Counted from the first letter of the stretch, positions 10,460 to 30,829 are shown. The stretch is DNA of 42,237 nt from Eubacteriales bacterium (GCA_045602305.1 JAZSBJ010000039.1:1-42237), one strand, 5' to 3'. The notes: a model not told the origin generated them from the sequence alone. Program-made: numbers and translations.

Positions 10460-10475
10460 AAATAGCAAAAGAAAA

Positions 10476-10500
10476 ACGCCCCAAGGGGCGTATTTCTTTT
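10476..10500. terminator. Bidirectional terminator between convergent genes
   Basis: ACGCCCC (10476-10482), AA, GGGGCGT (10485-10491), flanked by an A-run and a T-rich tail. Confidence 0.8.
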
Positions 10501-10523
10501 CTTTCAGTTAATTACAAAGCTAT

Positions 10524-11585: not shown

Positions 11586-11706
11586 AAGATTGATCACCTT
11601 TCGCTATTTTTACTTCTGTTTTGGAATTAATTTTATTATAATTCTGTTTTGGAATTTTGTCAAGTCCTTTTCGGGATATAATTCTAAAAAAGGATAAAGG
11701 GTGGCG

Positions 11707-11949
11707 ATGCAGATGAAACTTCGTAAAAAATCATATGGCGATGCAAATCTTATAGGAAGGAATGTCGAGCATCTTCGCAAGGCAAGGGGTATCAAGCAAA
11801 AGGATTTTATTGCAAAGATCCAAATTGAAGGATGCGATATGAACCCTACCAGTTATTCAAAGTTAGAAGGACAGTTGCGAAGCGTAACGGACAAGGAGCT
11901 TTTTGTGATTGCAAAACTTTTGGGCGTAGCTATGGAAGAGCTCTTTTAA
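11707..11949 (+). CDS. XRE (Cro/C1-type) helix-turn-helix transcriptional regulator
   Basis: About 80 aa. GRNVEHLRKARGIKQKDFIAKI...YSKLEGQLRSVTDKELFVIAKLLGVAMEELF is a typical HTH_3 layout. An AAAGG ribosome-binding site lies 6 nt before the ATG at 11707; the frame also opens at GTG 11701. Confidence 0.85.
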   Translation: MQMKLRKKSYGDANLIGRNVEHLRKARGIKQKDFIAKIQIEGCDMNPTSYSKLEGQLRSVTDKELFVIAKLLGVAMEELF

Positions 11950-11970
11950 ATTTGCACCCTTTAGTAATAC

Positions 11971-12012
11971 AAAAACCACAAGGCGAGAGATAACTTCGCC
12001 TTGTGGTTTTTT
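11971..12012. terminator. Strong hairpin terminator after the XRE gene
   Basis: AAAAACCACAAGGCGA (11971-11986), a 10-nt loop, TCGCCTTGTGGTTTTT (11997-12012). Confidence 0.85.
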
Positions 12013-12056
12013 ATAAAGTGTTTTTTGTCTACGGTTATGTCAAAAGATGTCGCGGC
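11980..12056. repeat. Copy 1 of a ~75-nt imperfect direct repeat (hairpin plus TTTTTTGTnTnCGGTTATGnCAAAA tail)
   Basis: By eye it aligns with 12238-12313: AAGGCGAGAGAT...CGCCTT...TTTTTTGTCTACGGTTATGTCAAAAGATGTCGCGGC against AAGGCGAGAGATG...CGCCTT...TTTTTTGTTTGCGGTTATGCCAAAATGCGTCAGCGCC. Confidence 0.7.
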
Positions 12057-12237
12057 TTTTGCTACAGCTCTGTTTTTAGGCAAAAGGGCTAGGCGGATTT
12101 TGAGCAGAATTTTTCGTTCTCGAGCGTGAGGCGTATATGCATACGTCGAGCGATGAGAACGAAAAAAGCAAACAAAAATTAAATTCCAATGGAGAAAACC
12201 GCAAGGTTTTCAACCTTAGACAATGCAAGAAATATAA

Positions 12238-12313
12238 AAGGCGAGAGATGAACTCTCGCCTTTGTTTTGAAAAATATTTTTTGTTTGCGGTTATGCCAAA
12301 ATGCGTCAGCGCC
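12238..12313. repeat. Copy 2 of the ~75-nt imperfect direct repeat. Its hairpin (12238-12263) doubles as the terminator of the five-gene operon.
   Basis: AAGGCGAGAG (12238-12247), loop ATGAA, CTCTCGCCTT (12253-12262). On the minus strand it is followed by TTTTATATTT, immediately 3' of the stop codon at 12314-12316. Confidence 0.7.
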
Positions 12314-15300
12314 TTAGTCCTCGGGGAAGAGGAACTGGAGCGTCAGGTTGCGGCTGTTGGGCCACAGCTGAACGCTTCTGTCAAGGAGCTTGTTGGCTTG
12401 CTTGTTCTTTCCGTCCTTGTTTACAAGGGCGCGAGCCTTTTCCTTGACGGCGTGGATACCGCCATCCGTCCAAAGATAACGGACGACCATATCGTACACG
12501 TTCTTATCCGCGCAACGGAATACCGCACAGGGCGCCGCCTTTTCAAAGGGACGCTCGCTGACTGCCTTAGCAAAGACCTTGGCAATCTGCTCCTCGTTGT
12601 ACGAGGTGAGATATCCGCCGTGGAAGCGGCAGTATTCGTGCTTGGTGGCACGGAATTCCTCAAGATCTCCAAAGAGCTCGGGGTCGGGCTCACGGACTGC
12701 CTTATCCTCGCCAAGCATATTCTCCTTGGCGGTGACGCAGAAGTAGCCGTAGCCGACGACGTTCTGATCGGCGTCACCTCTCTTGGTGTTCGAGGGATCG
12801 CCCCAAGTCACGTCGAGATAGTAGCAATACTTGCCGAGCTTAACGACGTTCCAAGCGTGCGTCTTGCTGACGACCTGACCGCAACAGATACCGACCGACT
12901 GCAAGAGGTACTGTGTCGCAACCGCATAACCGACGCATACGACCTTGTGGTCGACGAGCGCGCTATGCAAGGAGCGAAGCGTATCCTCTTCGCGCACATT
13001 CTGCCCTGCACCGCTGTCAAGACCGACACCGTCGTAGTCGAGGTTGAGGATCAAGCGGCGGTAGATGGTGAGCATCGCTTCGTAGGGATCCGTCTTTCTC
13101 GTGATGCCCTTGGTAAAGAACTTAACGTGGGCGCGAAGCTCTTTTCTGTGCTTCTGCACACGCGCAACGTCCACCTTACCGTCGGCACCGAGGCAACGGA
13201 AGCAGAGCGACAGGCTCTTGACCTTATCGCCCACGTGGCTGTAACGGAAGGTTTCCGTCCAGAAGAATTCGGGATAATCGTAAAGCACGAAGTAGAAGAT
13301 ACGGCGCACGGTCGCAAGCGGCATATCGTAGCACGGAATGGGCTCGTCGCTAAAGTCGGAGATGTGGCGCGCGATCTCGTTGTAAAGACGGATCTGAGGA
13401 TTTCTATCCTCTTCCGCCTCGTGCGGGATCAGCTCGCTTCCCGTCTTGAGCTTTGCGAGCTTGCCGTTCTTCTCGGCTTCGGGCTCCTTCGGTCTTTGCA
13501 TTCCGTCGGAAGCAGAGGAAGTATCGCCCTCGTCGGCACCTGCGTCGGCATCGCCCTCGTCGGGTGTGGTATCTCTTCCGTCGTTGCTATCGTCGTCGCT
13601 GGCGTGCTTGCCGCGCAGATAACGCTTCCAGAAGCGCGGTACGCGGTCGGGATCGTAGAGGGCATCGAGTCCCTCGTTGCCCGATTCGTCATCGTCGCCG
13701 GGGGTGGGAAGGATCTCTTCGGGACCGTCGGGAATGGCGTTTTCCACCACGAAGTCGAAGGAATTTCTGCCCGCATTGTCTGCGATATACTGCTTGATCT
13801 GTTCCACGAGAGGCAACCAGCTATCGGCGATCGCCGCACGGGTAAATTCCGCGCGCTCTGCGGCACCGATGCTGTCGAGGTAGCAAAGCTCCTCGTAGTA
13901 GAGCTGGGCGACTGCGGCAGTCGTGACACAGTTTTCATCTCTGTGCCATACCGAAAGGAGACCGCGCAACACCGCGACAAACATACAGTCACGCGGCAGG
14001 TCGCACTCGACCTCTACGCGGCGATCGGCATACGAGAGGCGGTAGAAATACTCGCTGAGCTCTTGTCCCTCTTCGAGCGAGAAGGGATCTGCGAGCGCAA
14101 AGCCCACGTTCTTCGGAAGCTCTCGGTCGGGGTACTTCTCTGCCCAATAGCTCTTGACCTCGTCGACCATACGGGAGAGGTCCTTATCCTCGCTGACCGC
14201 TTCGACCTGACAGTCAAAGCAGATGTATCTGTGCTCGTCGTAGATCGCATAGCGTCCCGTAACGAGAGGACGCTTACAGAAGGAGCAGTGCGTGGGCTTT
14301 TGCACCTCTTCCTCTTCCTTATCCTCACCGATCTTGCGCTCACAGTTGGCAAGAAGTGCAAGGCTTCCGTCGAGGTCGTATACCGAGGGCAGAGTGTCCG
14401 CGCCAAAGTAGATGTAATGTGCGTCCCCTGCGGGAAGCGTGGGATGCTCCTTGAGCCACTTGAGGTAGTCGAAGATGTAGGAGAACAGCTCCTCCATAAT
14501 GCGCGCACCGCCGTCGTACAGACGGTCGAGAATGCCCACATCCTCATCCGCGTCGTTCACGATGAGGAACTCTGCGACCTTCTCATCCTTTGCGGCGGGG
14601 CTATCTACGATATAGGGGTACAGCGTTTCAACGCATCCCTCGTAGCTCTCGTTGACCGACGCCTTCTCGGTGGGAGAAAGCAGAACGGGACAAACCGCAA
14701 CGCAACGGTAGGTTTCGGGGAACATCGTGCGAAGGAACTCGTTGAGCACGGCAGCAAGGAGCTTTCTCGTGCCGTCCGAGCATTTCTCGCGCGATACGAG
14801 GCGCACCGTGAGGATCTTTCCTGCCGAGAGGCGTCTTGCCTGCTCGTTCACCGTACGCTCGTCGAGATTCGGGTTACCGCCGACGCCTTCCTTAAAGTTG
14901 AGCGTCTGGCTGTTTGCCATCAAGCGATAGAAGCCGTAGGTTTCGCCAAGGATCTCCGCCTTTTCGTATCCGACGTCGATCTCCGCCAGCGTACCCGTGC
15001 TATAGTGATGCACACCGTGAAGCGCGCCCGTATCGGCACGGTCCTTCATCGTGTAGCGGCGAAGGAATGCCGTATCAAGGCAGGAGTTGTTGGTGATGTT
15101 TTCCTGACGCAGGTAAATGGTGCGGCGGTCGGGCGAAATCTTATCGATTTCATACTCGTGGTTGTCAAAAATGATGTACTGACCGGGCAAATACTGCTGA
15201 TATACACGGTCGGGGAAGGTATCGAGCGAGCCGATAACGGTACCGTGGAGCGAAAGCTCGACACGGGTATTGTTGGAGAGCAGCTTCTCGAACACCTCTT

Positions 15301-17770
15301 CAATGCGCAGGAAGGAAACGTGCAGCTCGGTATGAAGCTCGTAGCCGTCCTTGCGCTCGGGCTGAATGATGCTGTAGAAGTTGTATACGGGCTTCTTGGC
15401 GACGGTGTATTCTACTACCTTGCCGCCACTCTTGCTTTCGCGCTTCTCTGCGATCATCTTGGGATCGGACATCAGCTCGGAGAGCAAGAACGCCACGCGG
15501 GCATTGAGGTCGTACGCGGGCTTTGCACCCTTTTCCTTCATCGCGGCGTCAATGCGCTCGGAGAAGCGGGAAATTGGCATACCCGACGCGCTTGCCGTTG
15601 CCTCGCAAAGCAGGCGCAGAAGCAGAATCTTATCGGTGTCCGCGTGCTCGGTCGCACGGGGCTTGATGAGGTCGGACTGGTTGACGTACATTTCCACGCG
15701 GTCGCCGAAATACTCACGGAGCAGATACGGGCGGCTGAGAATGTGCAGAATGGACGCTTCTCTGCCGTGGAAACGGGTGTACGCATAGATGGCGGCGGCA
15801 AGGTTGCAACGGTCATCGGTGCAGATCATATAGTTGACGTTCGGCACCTGCTTGTGGAAGAGGTTGATCTCCACGTCGTGCGCCTTGAAGTTCTGCTTTT
15901 CCGCAGGGCTAAGCGGAACGCTCGTCAGAATACGAATGCCGTCCACGCGCGCCCCGTACGCCGCCTCGGCGATGAGGGACTCGATGGTCGTTTCGCTTTG
16001 ACCGTCCTTGTTGTAGAGGACGTTGCTCTCACGGTTCCAAAGCATATAGGAAACGTGCTCGTTTTCCTCTGCACTGTTGCAATCCACGATCTCCTCGTCA
16101 ATGCAGAAGAACTTGCGAAGGCTTGCGGAGAAGCCCTGAAGCACGTCGCGCGAGAGGAACATAAAGCGGATCTTTCCATCCGTCGCCTCTTGCAAGCGGC
16201 ACGCCATAATGGTGCAAAGGTAGCTGTTGAGGTTGAGGATCTTGTCGGCGTCCACGAAAACGGCGTTGCAGGCTTCCTCAAAGAAATAAGGATAGTTTTC
16301 GACAAGGTTGTCGGTTGCAAAGTCCTCGGGTACACCGACGAGGACGTCTGCCTCGTTGATGTGATGGGAGTCTGCACTGTAAACGCGCCAGGTTTCCTCG
16401 CGCGTGACACCCGTGATCTCGGTCAAGCGGTTACCGATGTATTGCTGAAGACCGACCACCTTGCTTCTGTCGGAAACGATAAAGATGATTCTCTGTCCCG
16501 AAAGAAGTCGCATATAGGTATAGGAGATGATATACTCGCCCAGCTGAGAATAGAAGGAAGAACCGAAATACACGTGTCGCTCGTTGAACACCGCGTCAAG
16601 ACCACTCATATAGTTTTGAATGACCTTGCCGTAGTTGTTCTTCATATACGAGCTGATATACCCCAGCGCGTCCTTGTAGATCTCGTTGGTACAGAGATAC
16701 TCAGCCACCTCTTTGGACTCGGTGGCGGGGAAATAGCGAATGCTGTGGTTCTTGGCAAAGCGGCGCAGAATGTCGCAACGCAGCTTGTCAAGACCAATCT
16801 TCTTTTTCTCTTTTTCTTCCTTTTCCTCGATCTTGATCTTACGCTTGGTTTCCACGGGGGGCTTGCAGGGCGCACGGAAGGTGTTGCAAAGCTCTTGCAA
16901 GAGGATAATGGAAACAAAAGGATAGATGTACATCTTCGCCGTTACCCAGTTGAGAATGGTGTAAACGATCTCGGGCAGGGGGAAGAATACGGCGAGAAGC
17001 AGAAGGAAGAACAAAACGGCGTACAGCGCTTCTACAACGTAGATGAAGAACTGCACGACCGCCGTTGCGGCGTGCACGAAGCGGCGCGCGTGCTTGAAAT
17101 CGGGGGCTTCAAAGAAAAGACCCCAAAAACCCATATAAATACGGTAAAGGAAGGGATGGTCCTTACGGAACTTCTCGTCCTCGGCGTGCGTCTTGCGCTC
17201 GGCAAGCGCCTTTTCTTCCTCGTCGGCGGCAGACTTTTCTTCCTCGTCATCCGTCTTCTTGCGGCGTGCGCGGAAGAAGACCGAGATGCGGCGGGGCTTT
17301 TTCTTGGTTTCGCCTTCGTCGCCCGTGGCAGCGTCCTCGCCGTCCGTCTTTTTCTTCTTTTTAGACTTCTTCTTTTTCTTGCGGAAGCCAAAGATAACAC
17401 CGAGCGCACCCTTTACAAACGCCTTTAAGAACAGAAGCAAATAAAGCGTCACGAGGTTCAAAAGCAGAACCTTAAAGAGCACCGAGCTTCCAAAGGTGAG
17501 AGAGGCGGATGCTCGCGAGAGCAGCTTTGCGATAAAGGGCACGGATGCAATCGCATTTGCCACCGAGAAGATGGCGCCGTATACCACGGCGAGCGCCACG
17601 AACTCAAGAACCGTCAAAAGAACGAAAAATGCGTTCAGTCGGTTGTTGGGCGCGTCATAGCGAAGTCCGTAGAAGGTGGAGAAGCGTCTTAACTTCTTGG
17701 GAAGCGGGAGAAGCGGGAGAAAGAGGAGCAATACCGAACAAATGATAATAAGGATCTTTACAGCTGTCAT
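12314..17770 (-). CDS. Giant (1,818 aa) polytopic membrane protein. Contains a degenerate SF2-helicase-like module, a CxxC...CxxC zinc ribbon, an acidic linker and a C-terminal transglutaminase-like cysteine protease core.
   Basis: - N-terminal ~310 aa has several TM helices split by a K-rich then D/E-rich loop (RKKKKKSKKKKKTDGEDAATGDEGE...).
- Helicase-like blocks: RIIFIVSDRSKV (Ia-like), VLVGVPEDF (Ib-like), AVFVDADKIL (DEAD-like), FMFLSRD (III-like), YMICTDDRCNLAAAI (V-like), FHGRE (VI-like). No GxGKT Walker A is present anywhere.
- Zinc ribbon HCSFCKRP...YICFDCQ at nt 14207-14290.
- TGase core VVCVGYAV...THAWNVV...YYLDVTWGD.
- The ATG lies 5 nt after the upstream stop. Confidence 0.9.
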   Translation of the reverse strand: MTAVKILIIICSVLLLFLPLLPLPKKLRRFSTFYGLRYDAPNNRLNAFFVLLTVLEFVALAVVYGAIFSVANAIASVPFIAKLLSRASASLTFGSSVLFKVLLLNLVTLYLLLFLKAFVKGALGVIFGFRKKKKKSKKKKKTDGEDAATGDEGETKKKPRRISVFFRARRKKTDDEEEKSAADEEEKALAERKTHAEDEKFRKDHPFLYRIYMGFWGLFFEAPDFKHARRFVHAATAVVQFFIYVVEALYAVLFFLLLLAVFFPLPEIVYTILNWVTAKMYIYPFVSIILLQELCNTFRAPCKPPVETKRKIKIEEKEEKEKKKIGLDKLRCDILRRFAKNHSIRYFPATESKEVAEYLCTNEIYKDALGYISSYMKNNYGKVIQNYMSGLDAVFNERHVYFGSSFYSQLGEYIISYTYMRLLSGQRIIFIVSDRSKVVGLQQYIGNRLTEITGVTREETWRVYSADSHHINEADVLVGVPEDFATDNLVENYPYFFEEACNAVFVDADKILNLNSYLCTIMACRLQEATDGKIRFMFLSRDVLQGFSASLRKFFCIDEEIVDCNSAEENEHVSYMLWNRESNVLYNKDGQSETTIESLIAEAAYGARVDGIRILTSVPLSPAEKQNFKAHDVEINLFHKQVPNVNYMICTDDRCNLAAAIYAYTRFHGREASILHILSRPYLLREYFGDRVEMYVNQSDLIKPRATEHADTDKILLLRLLCEATASASGMPISRFSERIDAAMKEKGAKPAYDLNARVAFLLSELMSDPKMIAEKRESKSGGKVVEYTVAKKPVYNFYSIIQPERKDGYELHTELHVSFLRIEEVFEKLLSNNTRVELSLHGTVIGSLDTFPDRVYQQYLPGQYIIFDNHEYEIDKISPDRRTIYLRQENITNNSCLDTAFLRRYTMKDRADTGALHGVHHYSTGTLAEIDVGYEKAEILGETYGFYRLMANSQTLNFKEGVGGNPNLDERTVNEQARRLSAGKILTVRLVSREKCSDGTRKLLAAVLNEFLRTMFPETYRCVAVCPVLLSPTEKASVNESYEGCVETLYPYIVDSPAAKDEKVAEFLIVNDADEDVGILDRLYDGGARIMEELFSYIFDYLKWLKEHPTLPAGDAHYIYFGADTLPSVYDLDGSLALLANCERKIGEDKEEEEVQKPTHCSFCKRPLVTGRYAIYDEHRYICFDCQVEAVSEDKDLSRMVDEVKSYWAEKYPDRELPKNVGFALADPFSLEEGQELSEYFYRLSYADRRVEVECDLPRDCMFVAVLRGLLSVWHRDENCVTTAAVAQLYYEELCYLDSIGAAERAEFTRAAIADSWLPLVEQIKQYIADNAGRNSFDFVVENAIPDGPEEILPTPGDDDESGNEGLDALYDPDRVPRFWKRYLRGKHASDDDSNDGRDTTPDEGDADAGADEGDTSSASDGMQRPKEPEAEKNGKLAKLKTGSELIPHEAEEDRNPQIRLYNEIARHISDFSDEPIPCYDMPLATVRRIFYFVLYDYPEFFWTETFRYSHVGDKVKSLSLCFRCLGADGKVDVARVQKHRKELRAHVKFFTKGITRKTDPYEAMLTIYRRLILNLDYDGVGLDSGAGQNVREEDTLRSLHSALVDHKVVCVGYAVATQYLLQSVGICCGQVVSKTHAWNVVKLGKYCYYLDVTWGDPSNTKRGDADQNVVGYGYFCVTAKENMLGEDKAVREPDPELFGDLEEFRATKHEYCRFHGGYLTSYNEEQIAKVFAKAVSERPFEKAAPCAVFRCADKNVYDMVVRYLWTDGGIHAVKEKARALVNKDGKNKQANKLLDRSVQLWPNSRNLTLQFLFPED
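12812..12937 (-). other. Predicted transglutaminase-like catalytic triad (Cys 12935-12937, His 12857-12859, Asp 12812-12814)
   Basis: Codons were located by hand: TGC in D-H-K-V-V-C-V-G-Y, CAC in T-H-A-W-N, GAC in Y-L-D-V-T-W. The spacing (C, 26 aa, H, 15 aa, D) and context (G-x-C-x-G-[FY]-A ... H-A-W ... D) fit the transglutaminase-core superfamily. Confidence 0.75.
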
Positions 17771-17775
17771 TGCTC

Positions 17776-19767
17776 TTACATTCTCCTTTCTTCAAAGATG
17801 TCTTCGATCACGTCAATGGTGAAGACCTTGTAAATGCGGTTTAGGCGGAAGGATTCGTTGATCTTGAACTCGTCGTCATCGAGGGCGGCCCCACCGTCCG
17901 CCTTGTGGGCGATCTGCATACTCGTGAGCATACCGAGCAGAACGTCGCGCACACGCTCAAGCATCTCTCGATGCTCTTCGATGTGGCGGTTGATCTCACG
18001 GTTTGCTTCGTAAAGGATCGCAAGCTCGGCAAGCTCGTAGTGAATGCTCTCCACCGCAGGCAAATATGCGGTGTAGCGCTTGCGCAAGCGGAAAATGCTT
18101 TGTCTTTGCTTGACAAGGCAGGCTTCGTGCAGGTCCGTCATCTCCAGCTTTGCAGAACGGATATCTCGCAAAATGGGAATCACGTGAAGCAAAGCGGAAA
18201 GCACGAACACACCGCCGAACACGGCAAGAGCAATCGAGAGAAGCACCGTTGCGCCAAGGTTCGAATCCTTGATCTGGAACACGAAATAGGGCACGAGCAT
18301 CGCAAGCATCACAAGGAAGAAGCAAACGATGTTGGTGCGAACGTATTTCTCGATGCGTGCCTTGCCCGAAAGATATTTATCTCTTGCATCGTTCGCCTTA
18401 GCAAACTCCTCGGTGTAATCTGCGCCGTCGTAATCGGCGTCGATCGCTGCCTTGAGAATGCGGCGCATCGTGACCTTTTTCTTCTCTACCGCGTTCTCAT
18501 ATTCAAGTCCCGAGGGATACTTGCTTTGCTTTTTCGCCTCGCGAAGCAAAAGTCTTGTATCCTGCTCGGTGGCGTGGTTTCTCATCTCGTCGCGGCGTTG
18601 CTTGTATTCGCTCATATAGCCCGCAAGCTCGCGCTTTTCTTCCTCGCTCTTGGTTCCTGGGGGAACGGACGCCATCTTTTTGATGGCGGCATAGCGGTCT
18701 TCAAAGCTCGTCCCCTTTGCTGCTGCGATGACTTCCATTTTTTCTTCATCGCTCATCGCATCCACGCAAATGTCGTCCGAAACGCTCTCGCGGGTTTCGA
18801 GCACGTAGAAGCCGTTGGCAGTACCACTTTGACGAACAAGCTCCAAGGCGCTTTGCACCTTGCCATAGGAATGGCGAAGCGTGTCAAAGAAGCGCTCCTT
18901 GTTCATCTGGGGCACGTCTACCACGTCATCTCTGCGGTCAACCGAAAGCTCAACCTCCTGCTCGTAGGCGCGAATCAGTGCCAAGGAGAGGTTAAGGTTA
19001 TCAAAGGCGGCACGGCTCTCGCTTCTTGCGGACGCCGTTCCCGCTACGTAGGTGCGGGAGCGCGAGCCGAAGGCGCGGTACGCGATATCGTATTTTTCCG
19101 CAAGGTTGCGGTAGAAGGTGTCGAAGCTCGCTTCCTTCTTTTTTCCGATGTCCTTGCAGAAATCCTCGGCACGGAACACGAGCTTTCCACCGCGATACTC
19201 TGCCGAGAAGGTTTCATAGAGCGTGGGCCCCTTTTCTTCGGGGGCGGGCTCTTCCTTTTTCGATGCCTTCTTTTCACCCTTTGCGGGGGCTTCCGTTTCG
19301 CGAGGGGCGCGCTTTTCCGCCACAATACGGTCGTGCTCGTCTTCCAGACCTAAAAGAAGCGCAAGCTGTTCCTTTTCCGCCGCATTCTCGCGAATGGTAT
19401 TCTTTTCGGTGTACTGAATGTAGAACACCTCCATACCGTCAAAGCCGAGCTGGGCGCGGCGAAGCGGCGTGTAGAGATGGTCGTTCAAATATATTTCTAT
19501 CAGCGACTTGTAAATAGCGAGATATTCGCTGACGGGATTCTCCTCGGGAAAGAGCGTTTTTTCAAACGCCAAAAAGTCAACAAGCACCACCACGCGGTAT
19601 TCGCCCGCGGTCATCGGCTGTTGACGCTTTACGATCTCCTCGGCACAGTCCTCAATGTTAGCAAGAGGACTCCGCATCCAAGCGATCTTATTATATCCGA
19701 CGAGCTCAAAAAGCAGATCGGTCTTGAGAACCTTATTCTCCGATGTATTGATTACGTAGGTTAACAT
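17776..19767 (-). CDS. Hypothetical 663-aa protein with a transmembrane hairpin (aa ~478-532, nt 18172-18336) between large charged, helix-rich regions
   Basis: AAAGGA ribosome-binding site. No recognisable family motif. TM segments are TNIVCFFLVMLAMLVPYFVFQI and ATVLLSIALAVFGGVFVLSALLHVIPIL. The stop is 5 nt before the next ATG, suggesting translational coupling. Confidence 0.8.
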   Translation of the reverse strand: MLTYVINTSENKVLKTDLLFELVGYNKIAWMRSPLANIEDCAEEIVKRQQPMTAGEYRVVVLVDFLAFEKTLFPEENPVSEYLAIYKSLIEIYLNDHLYTPLRRAQLGFDGMEVFYIQYTEKNTIRENAAEKEQLALLLGLEDEHDRIVAEKRAPRETEAPAKGEKKASKKEEPAPEEKGPTLYETFSAEYRGGKLVFRAEDFCKDIGKKKEASFDTFYRNLAEKYDIAYRAFGSRSRTYVAGTASARSESRAAFDNLNLSLALIRAYEQEVELSVDRRDDVVDVPQMNKERFFDTLRHSYGKVQSALELVRQSGTANGFYVLETRESVSDDICVDAMSDEEKMEVIAAAKGTSFEDRYAAIKKMASVPPGTKSEEEKRELAGYMSEYKQRRDEMRNHATEQDTRLLLREAKKQSKYPSGLEYENAVEKKKVTMRRILKAAIDADYDGADYTEEFAKANDARDKYLSGKARIEKYVRTNIVCFFLVMLAMLVPYFVFQIKDSNLGATVLLSIALAVFGGVFVLSALLHVIPILRDIRSAKLEMTDLHEACLVKQRQSIFRLRKRYTAYLPAVESIHYELAELAILYEANREINRHIEEHREMLERVRDVLLGMLTSMQIAHKADGGAALDDDEFKINESFRLNRIYKVFTIDVIEDIFEERRM

Positions 19768-19816
19768 TCTTTAGGTCCTTTCTTGAAGGAGTAGATCGGG
19801 AAATGAAAAGGGGGAC

Positions 19817-19890
19817 GCGCCCCGCCGCGTACGTCCTTTGGGGACGCACGCGGAAAGCGCGGGGCGCCTTTTTGACGGCGTTGCCGTCAA
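19817..19890 (-). terminator. Two intra-operon hairpins after the second tubulin-like gene; possible partial terminator, attenuator or mRNA-stabilising structure
   Basis: - Minus-strand hairpin 1: TTGACGGC/GCCGTCAA (19890-19872).
- Hairpin 2 (19867-19817), two-tier, about 20 bp: GCGCCCCGC + CGCGTGCGTCC, loop CCAAA, GGACGTACGCG + GCGGGGCGC. It is followed by GTCCCCCTTTTCATTT. Confidence 0.5.
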
Positions 19891-19896
19891 GGAAAA

Positions 19897-23688: not shown

Positions 23689-23768
23689 TTTTGTTCTCCT
23701 TGTTTCTTTGTTTATTTATTTTTGTTTTTTTAAATAATGAAGACTTTGAAAACTTGAAATCGGGAAAA

Positions 23769-26700
23769 TTATGCGTTTGCCTGTTCCTCATCCGATACGA
23801 TGGGAGCCGCCTTTTGGGGCTCTCCCTCGCTCTTGGCGCGGTTTTTGGCTACGCGATCCAAGGACGAGATTCGCTCGTTAAGAAATTCGGAGAGATTGAA
23901 ATCTCTCTTTTCCCACTTTTGACTGGGATCTCGGCTGGGGACGATCTCCATAAAGCTGCCCGCGCGGTTGGCAAAGTGCAAGAGCGCCTTGACAACGGCG
24001 ATGCGGTCGGCTTCATCCTCAGGCATATCGTCGTCCATATACATCTCCGCAACGAAATAGTCAAGCTCCCACTCGTAAACTTCCTTGAATTGGTCCTTGT
24101 CGCTGCTGATGACACGCTCACACAGCTCCCAAAGGAGATCGCTGACGACCGTGAGGATCTTTTCGCCGTCGTTACAGTCGTAGCCGTAATGACCCTCTTC
24201 CTCGGTCTTGATGCGATATGCAAATTCAAAGATGTTCATATCGAGCTTCTTCTTGATCTTTGCATACTTCTTCTCGTCCTCGGGGCGCAGAGCTTCCTTG
24301 CCCGTCGTCTTGAAGAGGTTTTCAAAGATGTTTCTGCGAAGCATCTTAAGATACTTGGTCTGCGTCAGAGCCGTCTTTGCTCTGCCGATCTGATGCACGA
24401 ATCCTGCGGACGGAAGCGATGCAAGCTGCTCCTCAACGTCGCGGTCGAACGCTTCGCTCCACTGCTCGATCTTATCGTCCTGCGGACGGAGCCAAGCGAT
24501 GAGTCCGACGAGGTTGTTGTCGTCCACGAACTTACCGTCGCCCACGATCTTCTCGCCGTCGTAACGGAAGGCAAGGTCGCCGTATTCCTTCTTGAAGGAA
24601 AGCTCGCCGTTCAAGAGAGCGTAAAGCAGTGCCTTGATCATCTTCTTGTCGGCGGCAATCTCAAGCTCGGAATTGATGTAGGGAAGGTATCCGCGCTTAT
24701 GCCAGTTGAAGCCAAGGTGCGGCAGCTTGCTGTCGTCGGTGTAGCCCGAGCCGTCACCGCACTTGGAGTAGTCGGAACCTGCCATACGAACGGTATCAAG
24801 ATAATACTTGTAATAGCCGTCCTCAAGGTTGCTTTCGTTGACCTTGATGATGTCGATGGAGTCAACGCTCATCAAAGCGCGGCAGACGTAAATGGTGTTT
24901 CCGGGAATGCCCGCTTCCAAGCGCACGAGGGCGTTTTGGCACCATTTGCCGATGAGGTCGTCTGCACAAGCACGCGCGTCGCCGCCACCGATGGAAATAT
25001 CAAAGGTGGAGCTGTTGGCTTCGAGATACTCCTCGAGCTTTTCGGGAACGAGAACGACTGCCTGTTCCTTCTGCATACCCGTTTCCTTAACGCGTAGCGC
25101 AGGCTTTGCCATTTCGTATGCGATGGAGATGATCTTGCGACCGACCTCGCTCTCCGCACCCGTGTTTTCGTCCGCGATCACCTCAAGGACGTTCTTTGCG
25201 GCGATCTCTTGATAATAATCGGAGCGCTTGATGGCTGCCTTGTTGGCGTCGTACATTGCGGAGAAGACACCCGTTGCGTCGATCTTGATGTCGTCCTCTG
25301 CCTTAAAGCGCTTGGCGCACGCCATACCGTAGGTGATGGTAAAGACGCCCTGCCCTGCAATGCCGTTGTCTGCGGCACCCGACATCATATCGCCAACGAG
25401 GCGCTCATAATGCTTTCTGCGGCTCTCAACCGAGGCGCCGACGTAAATGCAAGAGGTTTCCGAGGAGCGCGAGCGCTCAAGCTCTGCTCTCTTGACGCGG
25501 TCTGCAAGACGCGTCTTTTGCTCGGTGAAGCGACGGAAGAAGGAGCGATAGGACTCGATGAGCGCATTTGCGCGGTCCGCGACTGCCGTAAGCACGCGGC
25601 GCAGAAGAAGCATCGTCGCCTGATTCTTGAGCGAGGTCAAAAGCAGGTCGCCGTCCTTGATGATCGCCTTATTGTCCGTTTCGTAATCCGTTCTTTCCTT
25701 GGCGTACGCAACTCTGCCCGCTTCGGTGAGAAGCTCGACGAAGCGTGCCTTTTCCTTTTTGAGGTAGGCGCTTCTCGATGCTCTTGCACCAAGGTCGAGC
25801 ACGCTCGTATCGTCGGTGCAGTCGAGAATTTGGAAGGGCAAGGAGCCGATCTCAAAGGAAGAAAGGTCGGGCCACTCGATGCTGTCCATTCTTCCCAGCT
25901 CGTCCTCGATCGCCAAGCGGAGCTTACAAAGCTGCATCATTGCCGCGACGGGGTGGATGTGCACGCCGCCACGCAGAAGCACGTTGTTCACAAAGGAAAG
26001 CGAAAGGTTTGCCGTGGGATCCTTTTTAAGATCGAGGGGCAAGACCGCGTCGGCGCAAACGCCCGACTGACTGCGGATCGCCTCAACCGCTTTTCTGTAA
26101 TAATCGTTTAAGTAATCGTAAACCTCTTCCGCATTGTTGCAGACCTGCTGTGCGGCGGTTTCCTTGGCACCCTTTGAGGAGAAGAGGACGGGGTTCTTTA
26201 CGGGATTGATGTCCGACGCGATCTGTGCGGCGATGTCGCTGTGATCGGGCACGAGCGCTTCCAGCGCCAGCTTTAAGCGCTTAAAGTATTCGTCAAAGAC
26301 GAATTTTTGCTCTTCCTTGCCGTCGCGGCGCTCGTAATACCTCGTCGCGGCGCGGATGATCTCGGTGATGTTGCCCGTTTCGGTGCGCTCTTCGGCGCGC
26401 TGCGCCTCGAGGAAGAGCTTGGCGTACTCCTCGGTGGTGAGGTGGTATTCCTTACGCATCTCCTTGGCGAGCTTGCGCTTTTCGGTGATCTGCGACTCGG
26501 TGGCGTTGTAAAGGGAAAGCCATTCGCCCTCTACGTCGTCACGCGTTTTGCGCCACGCGAAATATTCAAGAAGCGTATCAATCGGATATTGGATCTCAGA
26601 AGAGCCTATGCCGGCGTACATACAATTATGTCCCGTTTCGCCTGCACGCTTCTTTTCCTCGTTGGACCAAATGCCGTCAAGCTCTCCGCCGGCTCTCGTG

Positions 26701-27599
26701 CAGATAAGCGAATAAAGAATGTTCGCCATCGCCTCGTCGTGTGCGGCGACCGAGGAAACGTTGATAATCTTCTCCATCAAGCACACACGCTCAAAGGGTG
26801 CGGCGGTGGGAGAATGATATTTTTTGTTTTTGGAATCGAACAGAACGCCGACAGGGCTCTCCTCACTTCCAAGACGGAAGTTGACGGGGGTTCTTCCGCG
26901 GCGTGCGCTTTCGCCCTTACCGCTGTCGTACTCCTCGCCGTTGAGTCCGTATACGACCTGGTTGATACCGTTCAGCTCACGCAGAATGGCATATGCATTT
27001 GCGTAAATGCTCGTGATATTCATACGGTCGCCGTTCTGCTTTGCCTCGTAAATATCGGGGCACGCAAGCATTGCTCTTGCTCTGACAGTCGCATTGGGGA
27101 ACATCTGACGCAGTCTTTTCTTGACGTACAGCGTCAGGGGAATAAAGCTACCCGAGCCCGTGCCACCCGCAAGGGAAGCAACGGTGTAAATGTCGATCGA
27201 GAAGGTCGCCTGCGTTTGGTCAACGAGCTTCTGCAAGGCGCTGTCGAGGTCGTTGCGGCGAATGGTGTCGTTCATCGCGTTGAGAAATGCGAGATACGAC
27301 TGCTTGCGCCACTGCCCTGCACCGATGGAAAGATTGTTCTCGTCGTACTTATGGTCCTTCGGGAACCACTCGTTGCATTGCGCACCGAGGCGATTGCGGA
27401 CCATACCTACCGTTGCATTCTCCGAAAGAGAGATGACGGATGCCGAGTCGATATTCTTTTCATCCGCGGCGTTGGTATCAAAGACGACGGAAACGATCTT
27501 GACGTCTTCCGTCTGCCCTGCGCGGGTGATCTTCTTTTGCAAGAGGTTAACTGCTCGGCTGCCGGTTCCGCCGACGCCGAGAATAAGAACGCTCTTCAT
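23769..27599 (-). CDS. Giant tubulin/FtsZ-superfamily GTPase-like protein, paralog A (1,276 aa)
   Basis: Same N-terminal GVGGTGSR and ASLAGGTGSGSFIPLTLYVKK blocks as paralog B. It is collinear with B over the full length, roughly two-thirds identical by eye in the first ~400 aa, with many synonymous differences at the DNA level. Acidic tail ...KAAPIVSDEEQANA. AAGGAGA ribosome-binding site. Confidence 0.85.
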   Translation of the reverse strand: MKSVLILGVGGTGSRAVNLLQKKITRAGQTEDVKIVSVVFDTNAADEKNIDSASVISLSENATVGMVRNRLGAQCNEWFPKDHKYDENNLSIGAGQWRKQSYLAFLNAMNDTIRRNDLDSALQKLVDQTQATFSIDIYTVASLAGGTGSGSFIPLTLYVKKRLRQMFPNATVRARAMLACPDIYEAKQNGDRMNITSIYANAYAILRELNGINQVVYGLNGEEYDSGKGESARRGRTPVNFRLGSEESPVGVLFDSKNKKYHSPTAAPFERVCLMEKIINVSSVAAHDEAMANILYSLICTRAGGELDGIWSNEEKKRAGETGHNCMYAGIGSSEIQYPIDTLLEYFAWRKTRDDVEGEWLSLYNATESQITEKRKLAKEMRKEYHLTTEEYAKLFLEAQRAEERTETGNITEIIRAATRYYERRDGKEEQKFVFDEYFKRLKLALEALVPDHSDIAAQIASDINPVKNPVLFSSKGAKETAAQQVCNNAEEVYDYLNDYYRKAVEAIRSQSGVCADAVLPLDLKKDPTANLSLSFVNNVLLRGGVHIHPVAAMMQLCKLRLAIEDELGRMDSIEWPDLSSFEIGSLPFQILDCTDDTSVLDLGARASRSAYLKKEKARFVELLTEAGRVAYAKERTDYETDNKAIIKDGDLLLTSLKNQATMLLLRRVLTAVADRANALIESYRSFFRRFTEQKTRLADRVKRAELERSRSSETSCIYVGASVESRRKHYERLVGDMMSGAADNGIAGQGVFTITYGMACAKRFKAEDDIKIDATGVFSAMYDANKAAIKRSDYYQEIAAKNVLEVIADENTGAESEVGRKIISIAYEMAKPALRVKETGMQKEQAVVLVPEKLEEYLEANSSTFDISIGGGDARACADDLIGKWCQNALVRLEAGIPGNTIYVCRALMSVDSIDIIKVNESNLEDGYYKYYLDTVRMAGSDYSKCGDGSGYTDDSKLPHLGFNWHKRGYLPYINSELEIAADKKMIKALLYALLNGELSFKKEYGDLAFRYDGEKIVGDGKFVDDNNLVGLIAWLRPQDDKIEQWSEAFDRDVEEQLASLPSAGFVHQIGRAKTALTQTKYLKMLRRNIFENLFKTTGKEALRPEDEKKYAKIKKKLDMNIFEFAYRIKTEEEGHYGYDCNDGEKILTVVSDLLWELCERVISSDKDQFKEVYEWELDYFVAEMYMDDDMPEDEADRIAVVKALLHFANRAGSFMEIVPSRDPSQKWEKRDFNLSEFLNERISSLDRVAKNRAKSEGEPQKAAPIVSDEEQANA
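27150..27170 (-). other. Tubulin/FtsZ G-box signature AGGTGSG in paralog A
   Basis: Codons mapped by hand: gcg ggt ggc acg ggc tcg ggt on the minus strand. Confidence 0.85.
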
Positions 27600-27669
27600 T
27601 GTTTTTCTCCTTACCTAAGGTTTGGGGTGTATACCCCCTCAAGCGGTACGCCGAGGGGATGTGCCCCGA

Positions 27670-30600
27670 TTATTTGTACTTTCCGACCGCACGCGCGGAA
27701 ACGAAAAGATAAAATTTGGTTTTGAGGACCAAGCCTCTCGTGCCCGTCAAGGGCTGATCGATGCTTGCCTTTGCCGTTTTGGGCGTGATCTTGACCTTCA
27801 CGCTCGAAAGGGCGGTTTTGTTGAATGTGAAGCTCGCACCGGGCTTCAGCGACGCCCAGCCCTTGTTCTTCAGGGTGGACGAAACAATGGCACCGCTGGG
27901 CTTTAATTCACCCTCAAGGCACTTGATGCCCGCCGCGGTACAAACGCCCGCGTTTTGGTGGTACTTCAGCGTTCCCTCGGACGTCGTGATGTCCTTGGAC
28001 CAGAAGCAAAGACCGACGAAGGGTAAAAACCGCTTTAGGATGAGATAGTCGAAAAGCCCTAAGCGCTTGACGACGATGACCTTGCCCTTAAGCTCGGTTT
28101 CGTCCACCGTGTAATCCAGAATGGGAACACGGACGAACACACCCTTGGGAATGCGCTTGACCTTGCCAAAGGTGAGGGCAAGCACGATGAGCTGAATGAT
28201 GTAAAGGATCAAGAGGATGCGCCAGATGTAGGACACGATGCTCGCCTTTGCAAGAGAAATGGTGCCGACGGCGTTTACACTGCCGTAATGGACGTCCATA
28301 TCCAAGGCGTCACCGAACACGAGCATCGAGGTCACAAGTCCGCGGAGCAGGAAGAACTGCCCGCCCGTCGGAAGAACGGTGAGGACGGGAACGCCGCCAA
28401 CGCTTTCGACCGTTAAGGTCGCGCGCACGGGCGAGAGGAAGGTCTTGTAGGCGCTGTGATCGAGGTAAAGCGTGCCGTCCTCAAGTGCTGCGGTAAGCTC
28501 TTCCTCGGAGAGAGGAATGCCGTCGCGCAAAACCTTAAAGGAGATGGTGCTTTGATTTTTCTTGAGGGCGAAGCGGTCCACGCTGCCCGTGGGGGCGAGG
28601 GGTACCACCTCAAAAACGGTATCCGTGAGCTTGATCGCTTTTTCGAGCTTGCATTCCACGGTTTCTACCGTTGCGCCGCGGAAGGTCGCCGTCAAGAGCA
28701 CGTCGTGCTCGCCCGTCTTTTTCGCAAGCTCGCCAAGCGACGCTGCCGTGGGAGCGTAGGTGAGGACGTTGCCATCGCACACGGCGTGCTTCGTCACGTC
28801 TACACCGCCGACCGTGAGGCGGTAGGTGAGAAGCGCGTTATCAAAGGGGATCTTGGTTTCCTGCGCCGTCAGCTCGAAGCGGAAGGCGTCTTGGTTGTCA
28901 AGGATCTCGTGAAGCGTGCAGGAAAGATTGCCTGCACCCGTGTTCGTAAGGACGAGTCCCGAGGGGTAGTAGCCGATGGGCACGTCAACCGTTCTCGGGT
29001 TCCCTTCCGCGTCCTTAACCGAAGCGGTGACGGTATAGGTGCCGTATTCCTTACCCGAAAGGTCTAAGGTAACGGTGAAGGTACCGTTCGCGTTTTTGTC
29101 CATACGGAAGTTTTGGAATTCACTTCCGTCCTCGGTCGTCACCGCCACCGTGGGGCGGAAGGTTTCGAGGACAGAAAGCGCGGTGATTTTCTGGTTGTCG
29201 CTAAAGACGGAGAAGGTGGTCTTATAGGTCGTCGTGTTTTGGATGTCTACGTCCCCGTGCTCAATGCGGAAGAAGGACGGGTTTTCCAAAACGACGCAGG
29301 GGAAGGCTGCATAGAGTGTGTACTGCCCGTCGAGCATACTGACCGAGATGCCGATCTCCTTTTTTCCCTCGGCAAGCGTGACAGGTTCGCCGGGCTCGTA
29401 GCTCTTGGTGTCGTAGGTCACGCGCGCAGATGTGGTACCGCCAATGGCAGAAGGATCGATGACCTTGCCCGTATCCTGCTCCACGATCTTGTAGGAGAGA
29501 TACACGGTATCGCCCTTTTTCATATGGCTGTTGATGTATGCGGCGTCGACCGCCTTGCGTCCTCCGCCGTCGTTCACCTCAATGAGGGGCTCAAGCGTCA
29601 GCGCTGGCTCAAGCAGCACCGAGATCACGGCGTTGGCGCCGGGGGCTTCGTCCAGTGTGAGAACGATCTCGCCGCCCGAGAAGGTGCCGCTGGTACCGCG
29701 GCTGAGGACGGTGGTGAAGCCGCCCTTCATCTCGTTGACGGGGGAATCAAACGCCGCCTCTTGGCTCACCGAAACGGCGGCGCCGTTGTAGGTGGGAAGA
29801 ATGCTTTCATCGGGGCGTGCGTTGGTGTTGGTCGCCATTACCGTGACGGTACGCAGGCTGAAGCCGACGTCCGAAAGGGGAATTCGGATCGTCTTGCTGT
29901 TTGCGTCTGCGTGGATCGCAAGCGGGTATCTGCCCGTGATGCGGTTGGCAACGCTTTCCATAACGCCGCCGATCTCCGAGGTGTTGGCTGCCTTGTAGGC
30001 GGTGAAGTTCGCCTTATCTTGGAGCGACGAAGCATCCCTTAAGTCAAGCGCGTTGACGTCAAAGCCGATGTAGATGCTTTGGAAAAAGGCGTACTTGGAG
30101 AGATCCTCCTCAAAGAGTGCGGCTGTTTTGTTCACGTCGCCGCCGATTCCCGTGAAGGCACCGTCGGTGAGGACGACGAGGAAGTATTCGTTTTCGCTTT
30201 GCTCGTCCGCAGCCACCTCGGTGGTCAGCTTCATTCCGTAGCGGTTGACGAGCTGATCGACCGCGACCTCAATGCCCTTGGGGGGCGTCTGTCCCGTGGG
30301 GTTTTGTGCAAAGAAGCTCGTGTTGATGACACGGCGAATCTCCGCTTCCCTATCCTCAGCGCTGAGGTTGACCTCAATGACGCTCGAATCGGTGTAGTCC
30401 TTCACATTATCGGTCGAGCCGGATTTGTTCATCGGTGTGATGATCAGCTTATCGTTTTTGCCAAGCGTTGTCATCAGCGTTTGGAGCGCGTACTTGGCGT
30501 ACTCCCAGCGATAGACCGTGCCGCCGTCGTTTTTCATCGAGCCCGAGTTGTCGAAAAGGACCGAAACGATCTTGTTCTTCGTGTAGCTCGCTTGCTCTTC

Positions 30601-30687
30601 CTTGGCGGTGACGGAGCCTGCAGGCAGAAGCGGCAAAAGCAAAACCGCCGCAAGCAGAACCGACAAAAGCCTGATCTTGAGTTTCAT
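27670..30687 (-). CDS. Secreted, single-pass membrane-anchored von Willebrand factor A (vWA) domain protein (1,005 aa)
   Basis: - Signal peptide MKLKIRLLSVLLAAVLLLPLLPAGSVTA.
- MIDAS motif in VSVLFDNSGSM (DxSxS, nt 30538-30552), with the later LVVLTDG strand typical of vWA.
- About 600 aa of T/V/G-rich, beta-type sequence.
- One TM helix IVSYIWRILLILYIIQLIVLALTF (nt 28168-28239).
- A 165-aa basic C-terminal tail (nt 27673-28167). Confidence 0.88.
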   Translation of the reverse strand: MKLKIRLLSVLLAAVLLLPLLPAGSVTAKEEQASYTKNKIVSVLFDNSGSMKNDGGTVYRWEYAKYALQTLMTTLGKNDKLIITPMNKSGSTDNVKDYTDSSVIEVNLSAEDREAEIRRVINTSFFAQNPTGQTPPKGIEVAVDQLVNRYGMKLTTEVAADEQSENEYFLVVLTDGAFTGIGGDVNKTAALFEEDLSKYAFFQSIYIGFDVNALDLRDASSLQDKANFTAYKAANTSEIGGVMESVANRITGRYPLAIHADANSKTIRIPLSDVGFSLRTVTVMATNTNARPDESILPTYNGAAVSVSQEAAFDSPVNEMKGGFTTVLSRGTSGTFSGGEIVLTLDEAPGANAVISVLLEPALTLEPLIEVNDGGGRKAVDAAYINSHMKKGDTVYLSYKIVEQDTGKVIDPSAIGGTTSARVTYDTKSYEPGEPVTLAEGKKEIGISVSMLDGQYTLYAAFPCVVLENPSFFRIEHGDVDIQNTTTYKTTFSVFSDNQKITALSVLETFRPTVAVTTEDGSEFQNFRMDKNANGTFTVTLDLSGKEYGTYTVTASVKDAEGNPRTVDVPIGYYPSGLVLTNTGAGNLSCTLHEILDNQDAFRFELTAQETKIPFDNALLTYRLTVGGVDVTKHAVCDGNVLTYAPTAASLGELAKKTGEHDVLLTATFRGATVETVECKLEKAIKLTDTVFEVVPLAPTGSVDRFALKKNQSTISFKVLRDGIPLSEEELTAALEDGTLYLDHSAYKTFLSPVRATLTVESVGGVPVLTVLPTGGQFFLLRGLVTSMLVFGDALDMDVHYGSVNAVGTISLAKASIVSYIWRILLILYIIQLIVLALTFGKVKRIPKGVFVRVPILDYTVDETELKGKVIVVKRLGLFDYLILKRFLPFVGLCFWSKDITTSEGTLKYHQNAGVCTAAGIKCLEGELKPSGAIVSSTLKNKGWASLKPGASFTFNKTALSSVKVKITPKTAKASIDQPLTGTRGLVLKTKFYLFVSARAVGKYK

Positions 30688-30735
30688 AAAGTCTTCCTTC
30701 CCAATCTTGTTGATTTCAAAGTGAAATGCGCTCGC

Positions 30736-30753
30736 GCGCGTAGCGCTACGCGC
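30736..30753. promoter_or_regulatory. Perfect 18-bp GC-rich palindrome GCGCGTAGCGCTACGCGC in the AT-rich leader of the vWA/tubulin-like operon
   Basis: Its reverse complement is identical to itself. It lies 49 nt upstream of the vWA start codon and downstream of the candidate -10. Confidence 0.6.
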
Positions 30754-30800
30754 CTATATATTTAATAATATCACCGTATAGGGATACAATCCTAACCTAT

Positions 30801-30829
30801 ATTATACAAATATTCTCGAGCAAATGCAA
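30801..30829 (-). promoter_or_regulatory. Candidate promoter of the five-gene operon (-35 TTGCAT, 17-nt spacer, -10 TATAAT)
   Basis: On the minus strand, TATAAT is at 30806-30801 and TTGCAT at 30829-30824. The -35 is weak, matching the consensus at 3 of 6 positions. Confidence 0.45.

Follow-up and report, generated by a model that had tools for sequence, protein, structure and literature searches.

Operons that pair a divergent FtsZ-like gene, FtsZl1, with a gene encoding a von Willebrand factor A (vWA) domain protein were predicted in 2010 by Makarova and Koonin, who gave them a membrane-remodeling reading (PMC2875224). Twin tubulin and coiled-coil genes, together with extracellular vWA proteins, have also been predicted in the GAP1-N2/DO-GTPase conflict systems of Firmicutes (PMC7159879). 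A third relevant group is that of the YprA/MrfA (DUF1998) superfamily 2 (SF2) helicases, which occur in MrfAB repair and in the DISARM, Dpd, Druantia, ARMADA, BRIGADE, and TALON defense systems (PMC7797055; bioRxiv 10.1101/2025.09.15.676423). Here, we analyzed a stretch of 42,237 nucleotides (nt) from Eubacteriales bacterium GCA_045602305.1 (JAZSBJ010000039.1), referred to below as the window, whose numbering is used for all coordinates except where another locus is named. It carries a cassette of five genes, A to E, that encode an exported vWA protein, two tubulin-like proteins, a transmembrane (TM)-hairpin protein, and a giant polytopic protein. We tentatively interpret this cassette as encoding a chromosomal, vertically inherited, membrane-embedded signaling/effector complex of the FtsZl1 (Tubulin_2)-vWA class; a conflict-type role is favored, although we stop short of calling it probable.

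The five co-directional open reading frames (ORFs) run from 30687 to 12314 on the minus strand, to which all coordinates within the cassette refer. Gene A (27670-30687; 1005 amino acids [aa]) encodes the exported vWA protein, with a TM anchor and a cytoplasmic tail. It is followed by genes B (23769-27599; 1276 aa) and C (19897-23688; 1263 aa), which encode tubulin-like (FtsZl1/Tubulin_2) GTPase 1 and its paralog, tubulin-like GTPase 2; by gene D (17776-19767; 663 aa), for the TM-hairpin protein; and by gene E (12314-17770; 1818 aa), for the polytopic membrane protein. From the ORF coordinates, the A-B, B-C, C-D, and D-E gaps are 70, 80, 129, and 5 nt, respectively, and at other loci the D and E ORFs overlap. 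ORF calling reproduced exactly the ORFs and coordinates listed in a first-pass annotation of this DNA, together with its gap lengths; the size of about 5,000 codons given there was too low, since the genes together comprise approximately 6,025 codons.

A scan of one genome per species (185,579 species representatives) recovered about 40 metagenome-assembled genomes (MAGs) of Clostridia with full-length relatives of the five-gene form. Their labels include Oscillospiraceae, Eubacteriales, Christensenellaceae, and "Ca. Scatosoma," and their sources include roe deer, goat, sheep, yak, water buffalo, rabbit, chicken, and the Hadza human gut. At 28 loci from species-level gut Clostridia MAGs, the set A-B-C-D-E was complete, with gene order and strand unchanged, and every incomplete cassette stops at a contig edge. 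Co-conservation, proposed in the first-pass annotation as a check on the unit, was therefore found, and the occurrence of five genes in one order in 28 complete cassettes from independent species-level genomes is not due to chance. The vWA gene lies directly upstream of a tubulin-like gene in every locus. Across cassettes, the identity of E drops to approximately 35%, and A is the fastest-evolving component: in matched genome pairs, it shows 37 to 69% identity and B to E show 59 to 89%.

On profile and model evidence, B and C are proteins of the tubulin/FtsZ fold and belong to the FtsZl1 (Tubulin_2) family, which is the most divergent branch of the tubulin/FtsZ superfamily. PF13809 (Tubulin_2) matched B (E = 2.4e-36, 126.2 bits) and C (E = 7.4e-32, 111.4 bits) against a Pfam cut-off of 27, a weak PF00091 match was seen as well, and precomputed annotation of their homologs includes PF13809. 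Both proteins, which are 59% identical in the window, carry the T1 motif GVGGTGS(R) and the T4 motif AGGTGSG. The tubulin/FtsZ-fold domain spans residues 1 to 360 of each protein, at 26520-27599 in B (T1 GVGGTGS, T4 AGGTGSG, profile, and fold) and at 22609-23688 in C (profile and alignment). An AlphaFold2 model of B residues 1 to 1200, built from a 90-sequence alignment, had a pLDDT score of 85.7, and Foldseek matched it to CetZ (E = 1.2e-4), gamma-tubulin, BtubB, FtsZ, and TubZ with a probability of 1.00 over approximately 350 to 400 columns. Beyond the GTPase domain, the model contains long helices at residues 476 to 519 and 639 to 707, followed, up to residue 1200, by a mostly helical alpha/beta C-terminal domain with some strands, for which no PDB match was found; PDB sequence and profile searches with B and the B family returned nothing relevant.

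The two tubulin-like positions differ in their conservation. The T1 and T4 motifs are canonical in every first-position (B) ortholog, whereas in most other lineages the second-position (C) orthologs are shorter (870 to 1170 aa) and have a degenerate T1 motif and sometimes a degenerate T4 motif as well. In the window sub-clade, both copies are canonical; the twin pair that had been read from the window thus holds for this sub-clade but gives way to a degenerate second copy in most lineages. Judged by these motifs, the first and second copies resemble an alpha/beta-type pair. At one locus (L012, 3564-13861, plus strand), three tubulin-like genes, of 1260, 846, and 1286 aa, lie in series. The last 25 or so residues of the tubulin-like proteins (23769-23860 in B, 19897-19990 in C, and their orthologs) are often acidic and of low complexity: the C-terminal tails have a mean net charge of -2 and are negative in 64% of 80 proteins. 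They loosely recall the E-hooks of tubulin, an analogy that suggests a possible substrate or docking tail.

Hydropathy analysis of A indicated a signal peptide and one TM anchor (residues ~817 to 839, 28171-28239, hydropathy 2.36), followed by a K/R-rich tail of approximately 166 aa. The predicted vWA domain (residues ~37 to 260, 29908-30579) carries the metal-ion-dependent adhesion site (MIDAS) pattern DxSxS...T...D, and the full MIDAS (D46, S48, S50, T134, and D175) is invariant in 28 orthologs. Pfam VWA_2 matched A below threshold (E = 0.014), and 4 of the 28 orthologs matched at E <= 0.01 (best, 3.7e-4). Comparison of the A-family profile with the PDB gave no vWA match and only an intimin-like immunoglobulin (Ig) domain. 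Weak Big_13 and intimin-like matches point to Ig-like beta domains at residues ~450 to 570; no fn3 match was found. In one Christensenellaceae cassette (L026, 3-9984, plus strand), two large A-like genes (>988 aa and 2324 aa) lie upstream of the tubulin pair.

The product of gene E combines a membrane anchor, a helicase-fold module, a zinc ribbon, and a transglutaminase (TGase)-like domain. From hydropathy and the positive-inside charge pattern, residues 1 to 297 (16880-17770) are predicted to form a membrane region of about five TM helices with a K-rich cytoplasmic linker. The remaining ~1500 aa are predicted, from hydropathy and charge, to be cytoplasmic; this soluble part contains 35 cysteines and the zinc ribbon and follows the positive-inside charge pattern. 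Residues ~325 to 1150 (14321-16798) make up a predicted YprA/MrfA-like SF2 helicase-fold module with RecA1, RecA2, helical, and OB/CON-like beta regions. An AlphaFold2 model of residues 325 to 1345 (pLDDT, 85.8; predicted template modeling score, 0.82) gave MrfA (6znp_A) as its best Foldseek match (E = 1.3e-21, 898 columns, TM-score [target] 0.55), followed by RecQ, Hel308, Pol-theta helicase, Mtr4, and Lhr; the sequence of secondary-structure elements in the model agrees with this architecture. At the sequence level, comparison of the E-family profile with the PDB gave no helicase match, and in 24 E-family members there was no Pfam match (E <= 0.01) to DEAD, Helicase_C, DUF1998, GAP1, or DO-GTPase. 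In all family members, motif I is replaced by the invariant sequence S405-F406-Y-S408-E-L-G-E-Y, which lacks the Walker-A lysine, and motif II reads D507-A-D509, without the DExH glutamate. The module is therefore predicted from its sequence to be ATPase-dead.

Downstream of the helicase-fold module, four cysteines (C1162, C1165, C1184, and C1187; 14210-14287), invariant in 34 family members, form a putative zinc ribbon that the ClpX zinc-finger profile matches weakly; from its position, we infer that this cluster is the counterpart of the DUF1998 zinc module. The C-terminal region (residues ~1488 to 1780, 12431-13309) is a predicted TGase-like thiol peptidase/transamidase domain with the triad C1612, H1638, and D1653. 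The E-family profile matched a solved TGase-like protein in the PDB (9crn_A, E = 4.6e-26), with which the three triad residues, invariant in 34 sequences, align residue for residue. Transglut_core gave 17.3 bits with the E protein of the window, under the cut-off of 23, and matched 19 of 24 family members (best E = 2e-6); an NCBIfam scan of the five proteins yielded a single partial match, which was TGase related. The domain keeps an intact Cys-His-Asp triad and is predicted to be protease-like.

D begins with a conserved domain, continues through a polar linker and a helical middle region to a TM hairpin (residues 479 to 536, 18160-18333; hydropathy 2.4 and 2.6, with K/R residues flanking both sides), and ends in a helical domain. 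Searches of D and the D-family profile against Pfam and the PDB found no recognizable domain, and among 1.84 billion proteins the family is represented by only 83. The idea that D might be a degenerate tubulin or GTPase was considered and rejected, as hhalign comparison with the tubulin-like family gave no relation. The protein features read in the first-pass annotation were borne out by these analyses: a tubulin/FtsZ-like nature for B and C (PF13809 matches and, for B, the Foldseek result), a MIDAS, one TM segment, and a tail of about 165 aa in A, the TM hairpin in D, and, in E, a zinc ribbon, a Cys-His-Asp TGase-like core, and a Walker-A-less SF2-helicase-like module, now sharpened to YprA/MrfA-like.

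A more divergent set of cassettes shows which of these components make up the conserved core. The sister loci L045, L078, L082, L083, and L084 have a four-gene version, in which a vWA-type gene and an E-like gene accompany a single Tubulin_2 gene and a gene of about 700 aa. Comparisons of sister and main families by hhalign related the E-like proteins (E = 1.7e-51, residues 5 to 1345), the vWA region of the A-like proteins (E = 1e-22), and the D-like proteins (E = 4e-6 and 3e-5); DNSGSM is kept in the vWA region of the sister cassette, and sister cassettes also retain the TM hairpin of D. An E-like profile that included two divergent E-like proteins retrieved 708 clusters, of which the top 120 were 1735 to 2051 aa in length. 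The conserved core therefore numbers four genes, to which the twin tubulin adds an elaboration particular to this clade, and the single-tubulin version is more widespread; the five-gene unit originally described is conserved as such at 28 loci but is not the core. In L045 and L078, a zincin-like (metallopeptidase-like) module stands in place of the C-terminal TGase-like domain of E; L045 (1209-20052, plus strand), for example, has one tubulin-like gene and an E-like protein that ends in a zincin-like module (BSP/DUF6782). Because this module replaces the TGase-like domain in an otherwise conserved E, the peptidase is likely to be the output of the system.

The cassette shares with the FtsZl1-vWA operons (PMC2875224) a divergent N-terminal GTPase with T1 and T4 motifs, a long coiled-coil or helical region, an alpha-rich C terminus, and a neighboring vWA gene whose product has an intact MIDAS together with signal or TM segments, as well as additional lineage-specific TM proteins. 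Both lack a recognizable T6-H7/T7 region, and both are known from computational prediction only. However, the partners named in that work are kinases, a P-loop GTPase, and OmpA-like proteins, with no mention of a helicase, transglutaminase, or peptidase, whereas here the partners are the TM-hairpin protein D and the giant protein E, and the tubulin-like gene is duplicated in this clade. With the systems described by Kaur et al. in 2020 (PMC7159879), the cassette has in common two tubulin and coiled-coil genes, a membrane-anchored extracellular vWA protein, a membrane-proximal setting, inactive enzyme modules, variable peptidases, and a predicted regulated, cytoskeleton-like assembly. It differs from them in giving no Pfam match to DO-GTPase, GAP1, or FNIII repeats, in having no YtkA-vWA protein, and in its stable housekeeping context, as opposed to the "mobile gene neighbourhood" reported there.

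Like the YprA/MrfA helicases, the E module has, in its predicted structure, the fold and domain order RecA1, RecA2, helical, beta-rich OB/CON-like, and 4-Cys zinc. Unlike them, it has lost the ATPase motifs (no GKT, and DAD for DExH), gives no sequence-profile match, has no associated nuclease, and is joined in one protein with a polytopic anchor on its N-terminal side and a TGase-like domain on its C-terminal side. A 2025 survey of the YprA family mentions no branch linked to tubulin, vWA, TGase, or TM proteins (bioRxiv 10.1101/2025.09.15.676423). With the TGase-like thiol peptidases (Transglut_core; 9crn_A), E shares the Cys-His-Asp triad; it differs in that the domain is predicted to be cytoplasmic and lies at the end of a multidomain protein of 1.8 kaa. 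As a thematic analogy, MoxR-vWA-like-TgpA operons encode an NTPase, a vWA protein, and a membrane-anchored TGase-like protein, but the NTPase of the present cassette is tubulin-like rather than AAA+. Full-text literature searches found no description of the five-gene set, and the literature searched contained no experimental characterization of FtsZl1/Tubulin_2 proteins. The suggestion that the system was undescribed consequently stands for its architecture but not for the association of tubulin-like and vWA genes, which had already been predicted both for FtsZl1-vWA operons (PMC2875224) and for twin-tubulin and vWA conflict systems (PMC7159879); it is the D and E partners that appear to be undescribed.

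The genomic setting indicates that, in the window sub-clade, the cassette is inherited vertically at a stable site, because its proteins diverge in step with the products of flanking housekeeping genes. On one side of the window lie the S10 leader, PolA, an AI-2E transporter, SbcD, SbcC, and an unknown 357-aa gene, and on the other lie MetA, O-acetylhomoserine sulfhydrylase, and an aminotransferase. The metA and sulfhydrylase flank is common to the window and loci L009, L008, L006, and L010, with SbcC or PolA on the opposite side. Between L009 and the window, identity is 92% for MetA, 96% for the sulfhydrylase, 69% for A, 89% for B, 89% for C, 86% for D, and 89% for E; the corresponding values for L006 are 80, 80, 37, 79, 75, 64, and 59%. 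Synteny with L001 extends over the S10 operon, a 354-aa gene, PolA, and the cassette. GC contents of 0.52 to 0.58 in the operon are like those of the flanks, in agreement with the first-pass annotation, which had noted a composition matching the surroundings and had argued against a recent mobile insertion. A mobile-element origin was rejected, since no cassette was found on plasmids, phages, or IMG/VR viral contigs.

One MAG, SIG648, contains two full cassettes, L006 (75 to 79% identical to the window) and L009 (89%), on contigs SVRR01000024 and SVRR01000006. Two paralogous systems in one genome were considered and rejected in favor of a mixed bin, as both copies occupy the same metA-linked site; the double cassette most likely reflects a bin that mixes two related species.

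We infer an envelope-spanning sensor-polymer-protease mechanism. The MIDAS of A would bind a surface ligand or perturbation extracellularly, and the tail of A would couple this signal to the cytoplasm, where it may trigger or position a GTP-dependent B/C heteropolymer on a membrane platform formed by D and E. Assembly of B and C would in turn activate or localize the thiol peptidase (or transamidase) of E, with the dead helicase module acting as a nucleic acid- or protein-binding sensor or scaffold and not as a motor. By analogy, the role of such a complex is most likely an invader or envelope-surveillance response of the conflict type. This role is favored because the helicase family is defense linked, an enzyme module is inactive, effectors are swapped, the ectodomain evolves fast, and some loci have defense-type neighbors. 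The YprA family is predominantly linked to defense (bioRxiv 10.1101/2025.09.15.676423), and the combination of inactive enzyme modules with swappable effectors fits the conflict-system "grammar" set out in PMC7159879.

Several observations weigh against this interpretation. The cassette keeps to one stable site, with metA on one side, sbcC/polA on the other, and the S10 operon close by, and it diverges in step with those housekeeping genes; the other sampled loci have different flanks, made up mainly of metabolic or housekeeping genes, and the search for copies on plasmids, phages, and viral contigs was negative. PADLOC-DB 2.0 gave zero matches to A to E at E <= 0.1, and the core proteins of the sister cassette, tested with PADLOC, likewise gave none. 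Only some 3 of 12 loci have defense-type neighbors, a frequency that does not clearly exceed chance. With respect to the mechanism, the vWA identity of A is drawn from the MIDAS motif and subthreshold profile matches, and the placement of D and E in the membrane, with their bulk in the cytoplasm, is a prediction from hydropathy and charge. Alignments of the T7-equivalent loop did not reveal an evident conserved acidic residue corresponding to the canonical T7 catalytic acid, which weakens the case for GTP hydrolysis-coupled polymerization.

These points lend themselves to a different account, in which the cassette encodes a lineage-specific housekeeping machine for cytoskeletal or membrane remodeling. 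Its polymer would shape the envelope (in a septation variant, sporulation, vesicle formation, or surface-layer organization), and the TGase-like domain of E would process or cross-link structural substrates. A stable chromosomal position with divergence that tracks housekeeping genes, zero PADLOC matches, and the lack of association with mobile genetic elements would all be expected of such a machine, as would flanks that include the S10 operon, PolA, the SpoIIIA operon, and spoIIAA/AB/sigF, the single cassette on every long contig inspected, and the large clade-wide family of 708 E-like clusters; membrane remodeling is also what was proposed for the FtsZl1-vWA class (PMC2875224). However, a dead YprA-type helicase joined to a swappable TGase-like or zincin module is hard to explain in a structural machine, the five-gene form is spread patchily (about 40 of 185,579 species representatives), the ectodomain of A evolves fast, and CARF and TIR genes lie beside some sister loci. 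An envelope-remodeling role is therefore possible but somewhat doubtful, and we regard it as nearly as likely as the conflict role.

Two further explanations were weighed. The twin tubulin-like genes with long helices, the membrane-anchored extracellular vWA protein, the many TM components, and the Firmicute host would all suit membership in the DO-GTPase/GAP1-N2 "GTPase-centric" conflict systems (Kaur et al. 2020, PMC7159879). Nevertheless, Pfam scans of the five proteins and of 29 members of the D family and 24 of the E family (E <= 0.01 for the family members) gave no match to DO-GTPase, GAP1 (N/M/C), or FNIII, the cassette encodes no P-loop GTPase, the large module of E has an SF2 helicase fold and not a TRAFAC GTPase fold, and there is a single vWA gene without a YtkA fusion; membership is thus largely refuted and very improbable. 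It is equally hard to credit a DNA-handling machine in which E is a working membrane helicase/translocase of the YprA/MrfA type (for uptake, repair, or segregation) and the tubulins provide TubZ/PhuZ-like positioning. The structure nearest to E in fold is that of a DNA-bound DNA repair helicase, the fold matches of B include TubZ, and SbcCD and PolA are encoded nearby in the window; however, the SbcCD/PolA neighbors are not conserved with the cassette, and no centromere-binding partner, plasmid, or phage context was found. Because the Walker-A lysine and the DExH glutamate are absent throughout the family, ATP-driven translocation by E is very unlikely.

A broader reading of the four-gene core, possible but more speculative than the conflict-type role that we favor for the cassette, is that it constitutes an unrecognized, widespread Clostridial system in which a tubulin-like polymer would serve a membrane-anchored peptidase as its switch or scaffold. 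In an immunity version, this would be a surface-triggered anti-invader system whose dead defense-type helicase senses nucleic acid at the DNA entry site. In a second version, the system would parallel, in bacteria, the way eukaryotic tubulin is paired with TGase-fold peptidases that act on tubulin tails, with E processing the often acidic C-terminal tails of B and C. The eukaryotic vasohibins, which are TGase-fold tubulin carboxypeptidases, provide a thematic analogy.

The strictly conserved set of four to five partner genes makes the function of FtsZl1/Tubulin_2 proteins testable, and it raises the question of how a tubulin fold without a recognizable T7 assembles, including in an alpha/beta-like pair with one degenerate subunit. 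From its sequence and modeled fold, E would represent the recruitment, in a catalytically dead form, of a helicase of the YprA type, which stands at the center of DISARM, Druantia, and ARMADA immunity, to a membrane and peptidase fusion. The cassette is common among uncultured Clostridia from the guts of ruminants, rabbits, chickens, and humans and may affect phage-host or host-microbe interactions; if it is indeed a defense system, a cytoskeletal-polymer switch would be added to the known repertoire.

With regard to expression signals, all of which lie on the minus strand, the bracketing hairpin terminators expected from the first-pass annotation were found by a terminator scan at 31007-30974, on the metA side upstream of the unit, and at 12263-12237, where an intrinsic-terminator-like hairpin (11-bp stem with 6 GC pairs and a T-rich tail) closes the unit 51 nt past the E stop codon. 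In the region 30688-30829, to which the promoter and leader had been assigned, a candidate extended -10 promoter, TTGCAT-17 nt-TGTATAAT, can be read by eye at ~30829-30801, downstream of the metA terminator, but a consensus promoter scan did not list it because the -35 hexamer matches at only 3 of 6 positions. The 5' leader (30688-30800) contains a GC-rich palindrome (30753-30736) and a GGGAAGGAAG ribosome-binding site; an Rfam search of the leader for riboswitches or known leader RNAs gave zero family matches. Two long antisense ORFs on the plus strand, at 12137-17428 (1763 aa, opposite E) and 20029-23733 (1234 aa, opposite C), were rejected as genes. They lie in codon register and are explained by the scarcity of TTA, CTA, and TCA codons, which are near-absent (about 1 per 1000 codons; third-position GC content, ~0.7).

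Several neighboring features were also observed. In the window, the S10-Clostridia ribosomal protein leader (Rfam, 44 bits) lies at 796-868 on the minus strand, and the S10 operon is within approximately 12 kb of the cassette. A perfect TTGACA-17-TATAAT promoter (11663-11635, minus strand) serves the neighboring 357-aa gene. In the AT-rich gap downstream of E, a convergent ORF (11701-11949, plus strand) encodes an 82-aa XRE/Cro-type helix-turn-helix protein that could be a local regulator or could be unrelated. At other loci, the neighbors are varied. In the main clade, L080 (3357-5003, plus strand) has a TIR-leucine-rich repeat protein (548 aa) and an unknown 507-aa protein encoded between the SpoIIIA operon and A. 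Among the sister loci, L045 has an upstream gene for a double-AAA+/Peptidase_M41 (FtsH-like) protein that also matches IetA-type PADLOC models. Directly downstream of the L083 cassette (15706-21140, plus strand) are genes for a 1515-aa FtsK/SpoIIIE-family protein, a YukD-like protein, and proteins of about 100 aa, followed by a Ser/Thr kinase gene, a set that resembles a type VII secretion locus. Beside the L078 cassette (747-19710, plus strand), a gene for a Card1/CARF-PD-(D/E)xK nuclease lies to one side and genes for TIR-RCC1/WD40 and ThsB-like TIR proteins lie to the other, a neighborhood like that of a defense island.

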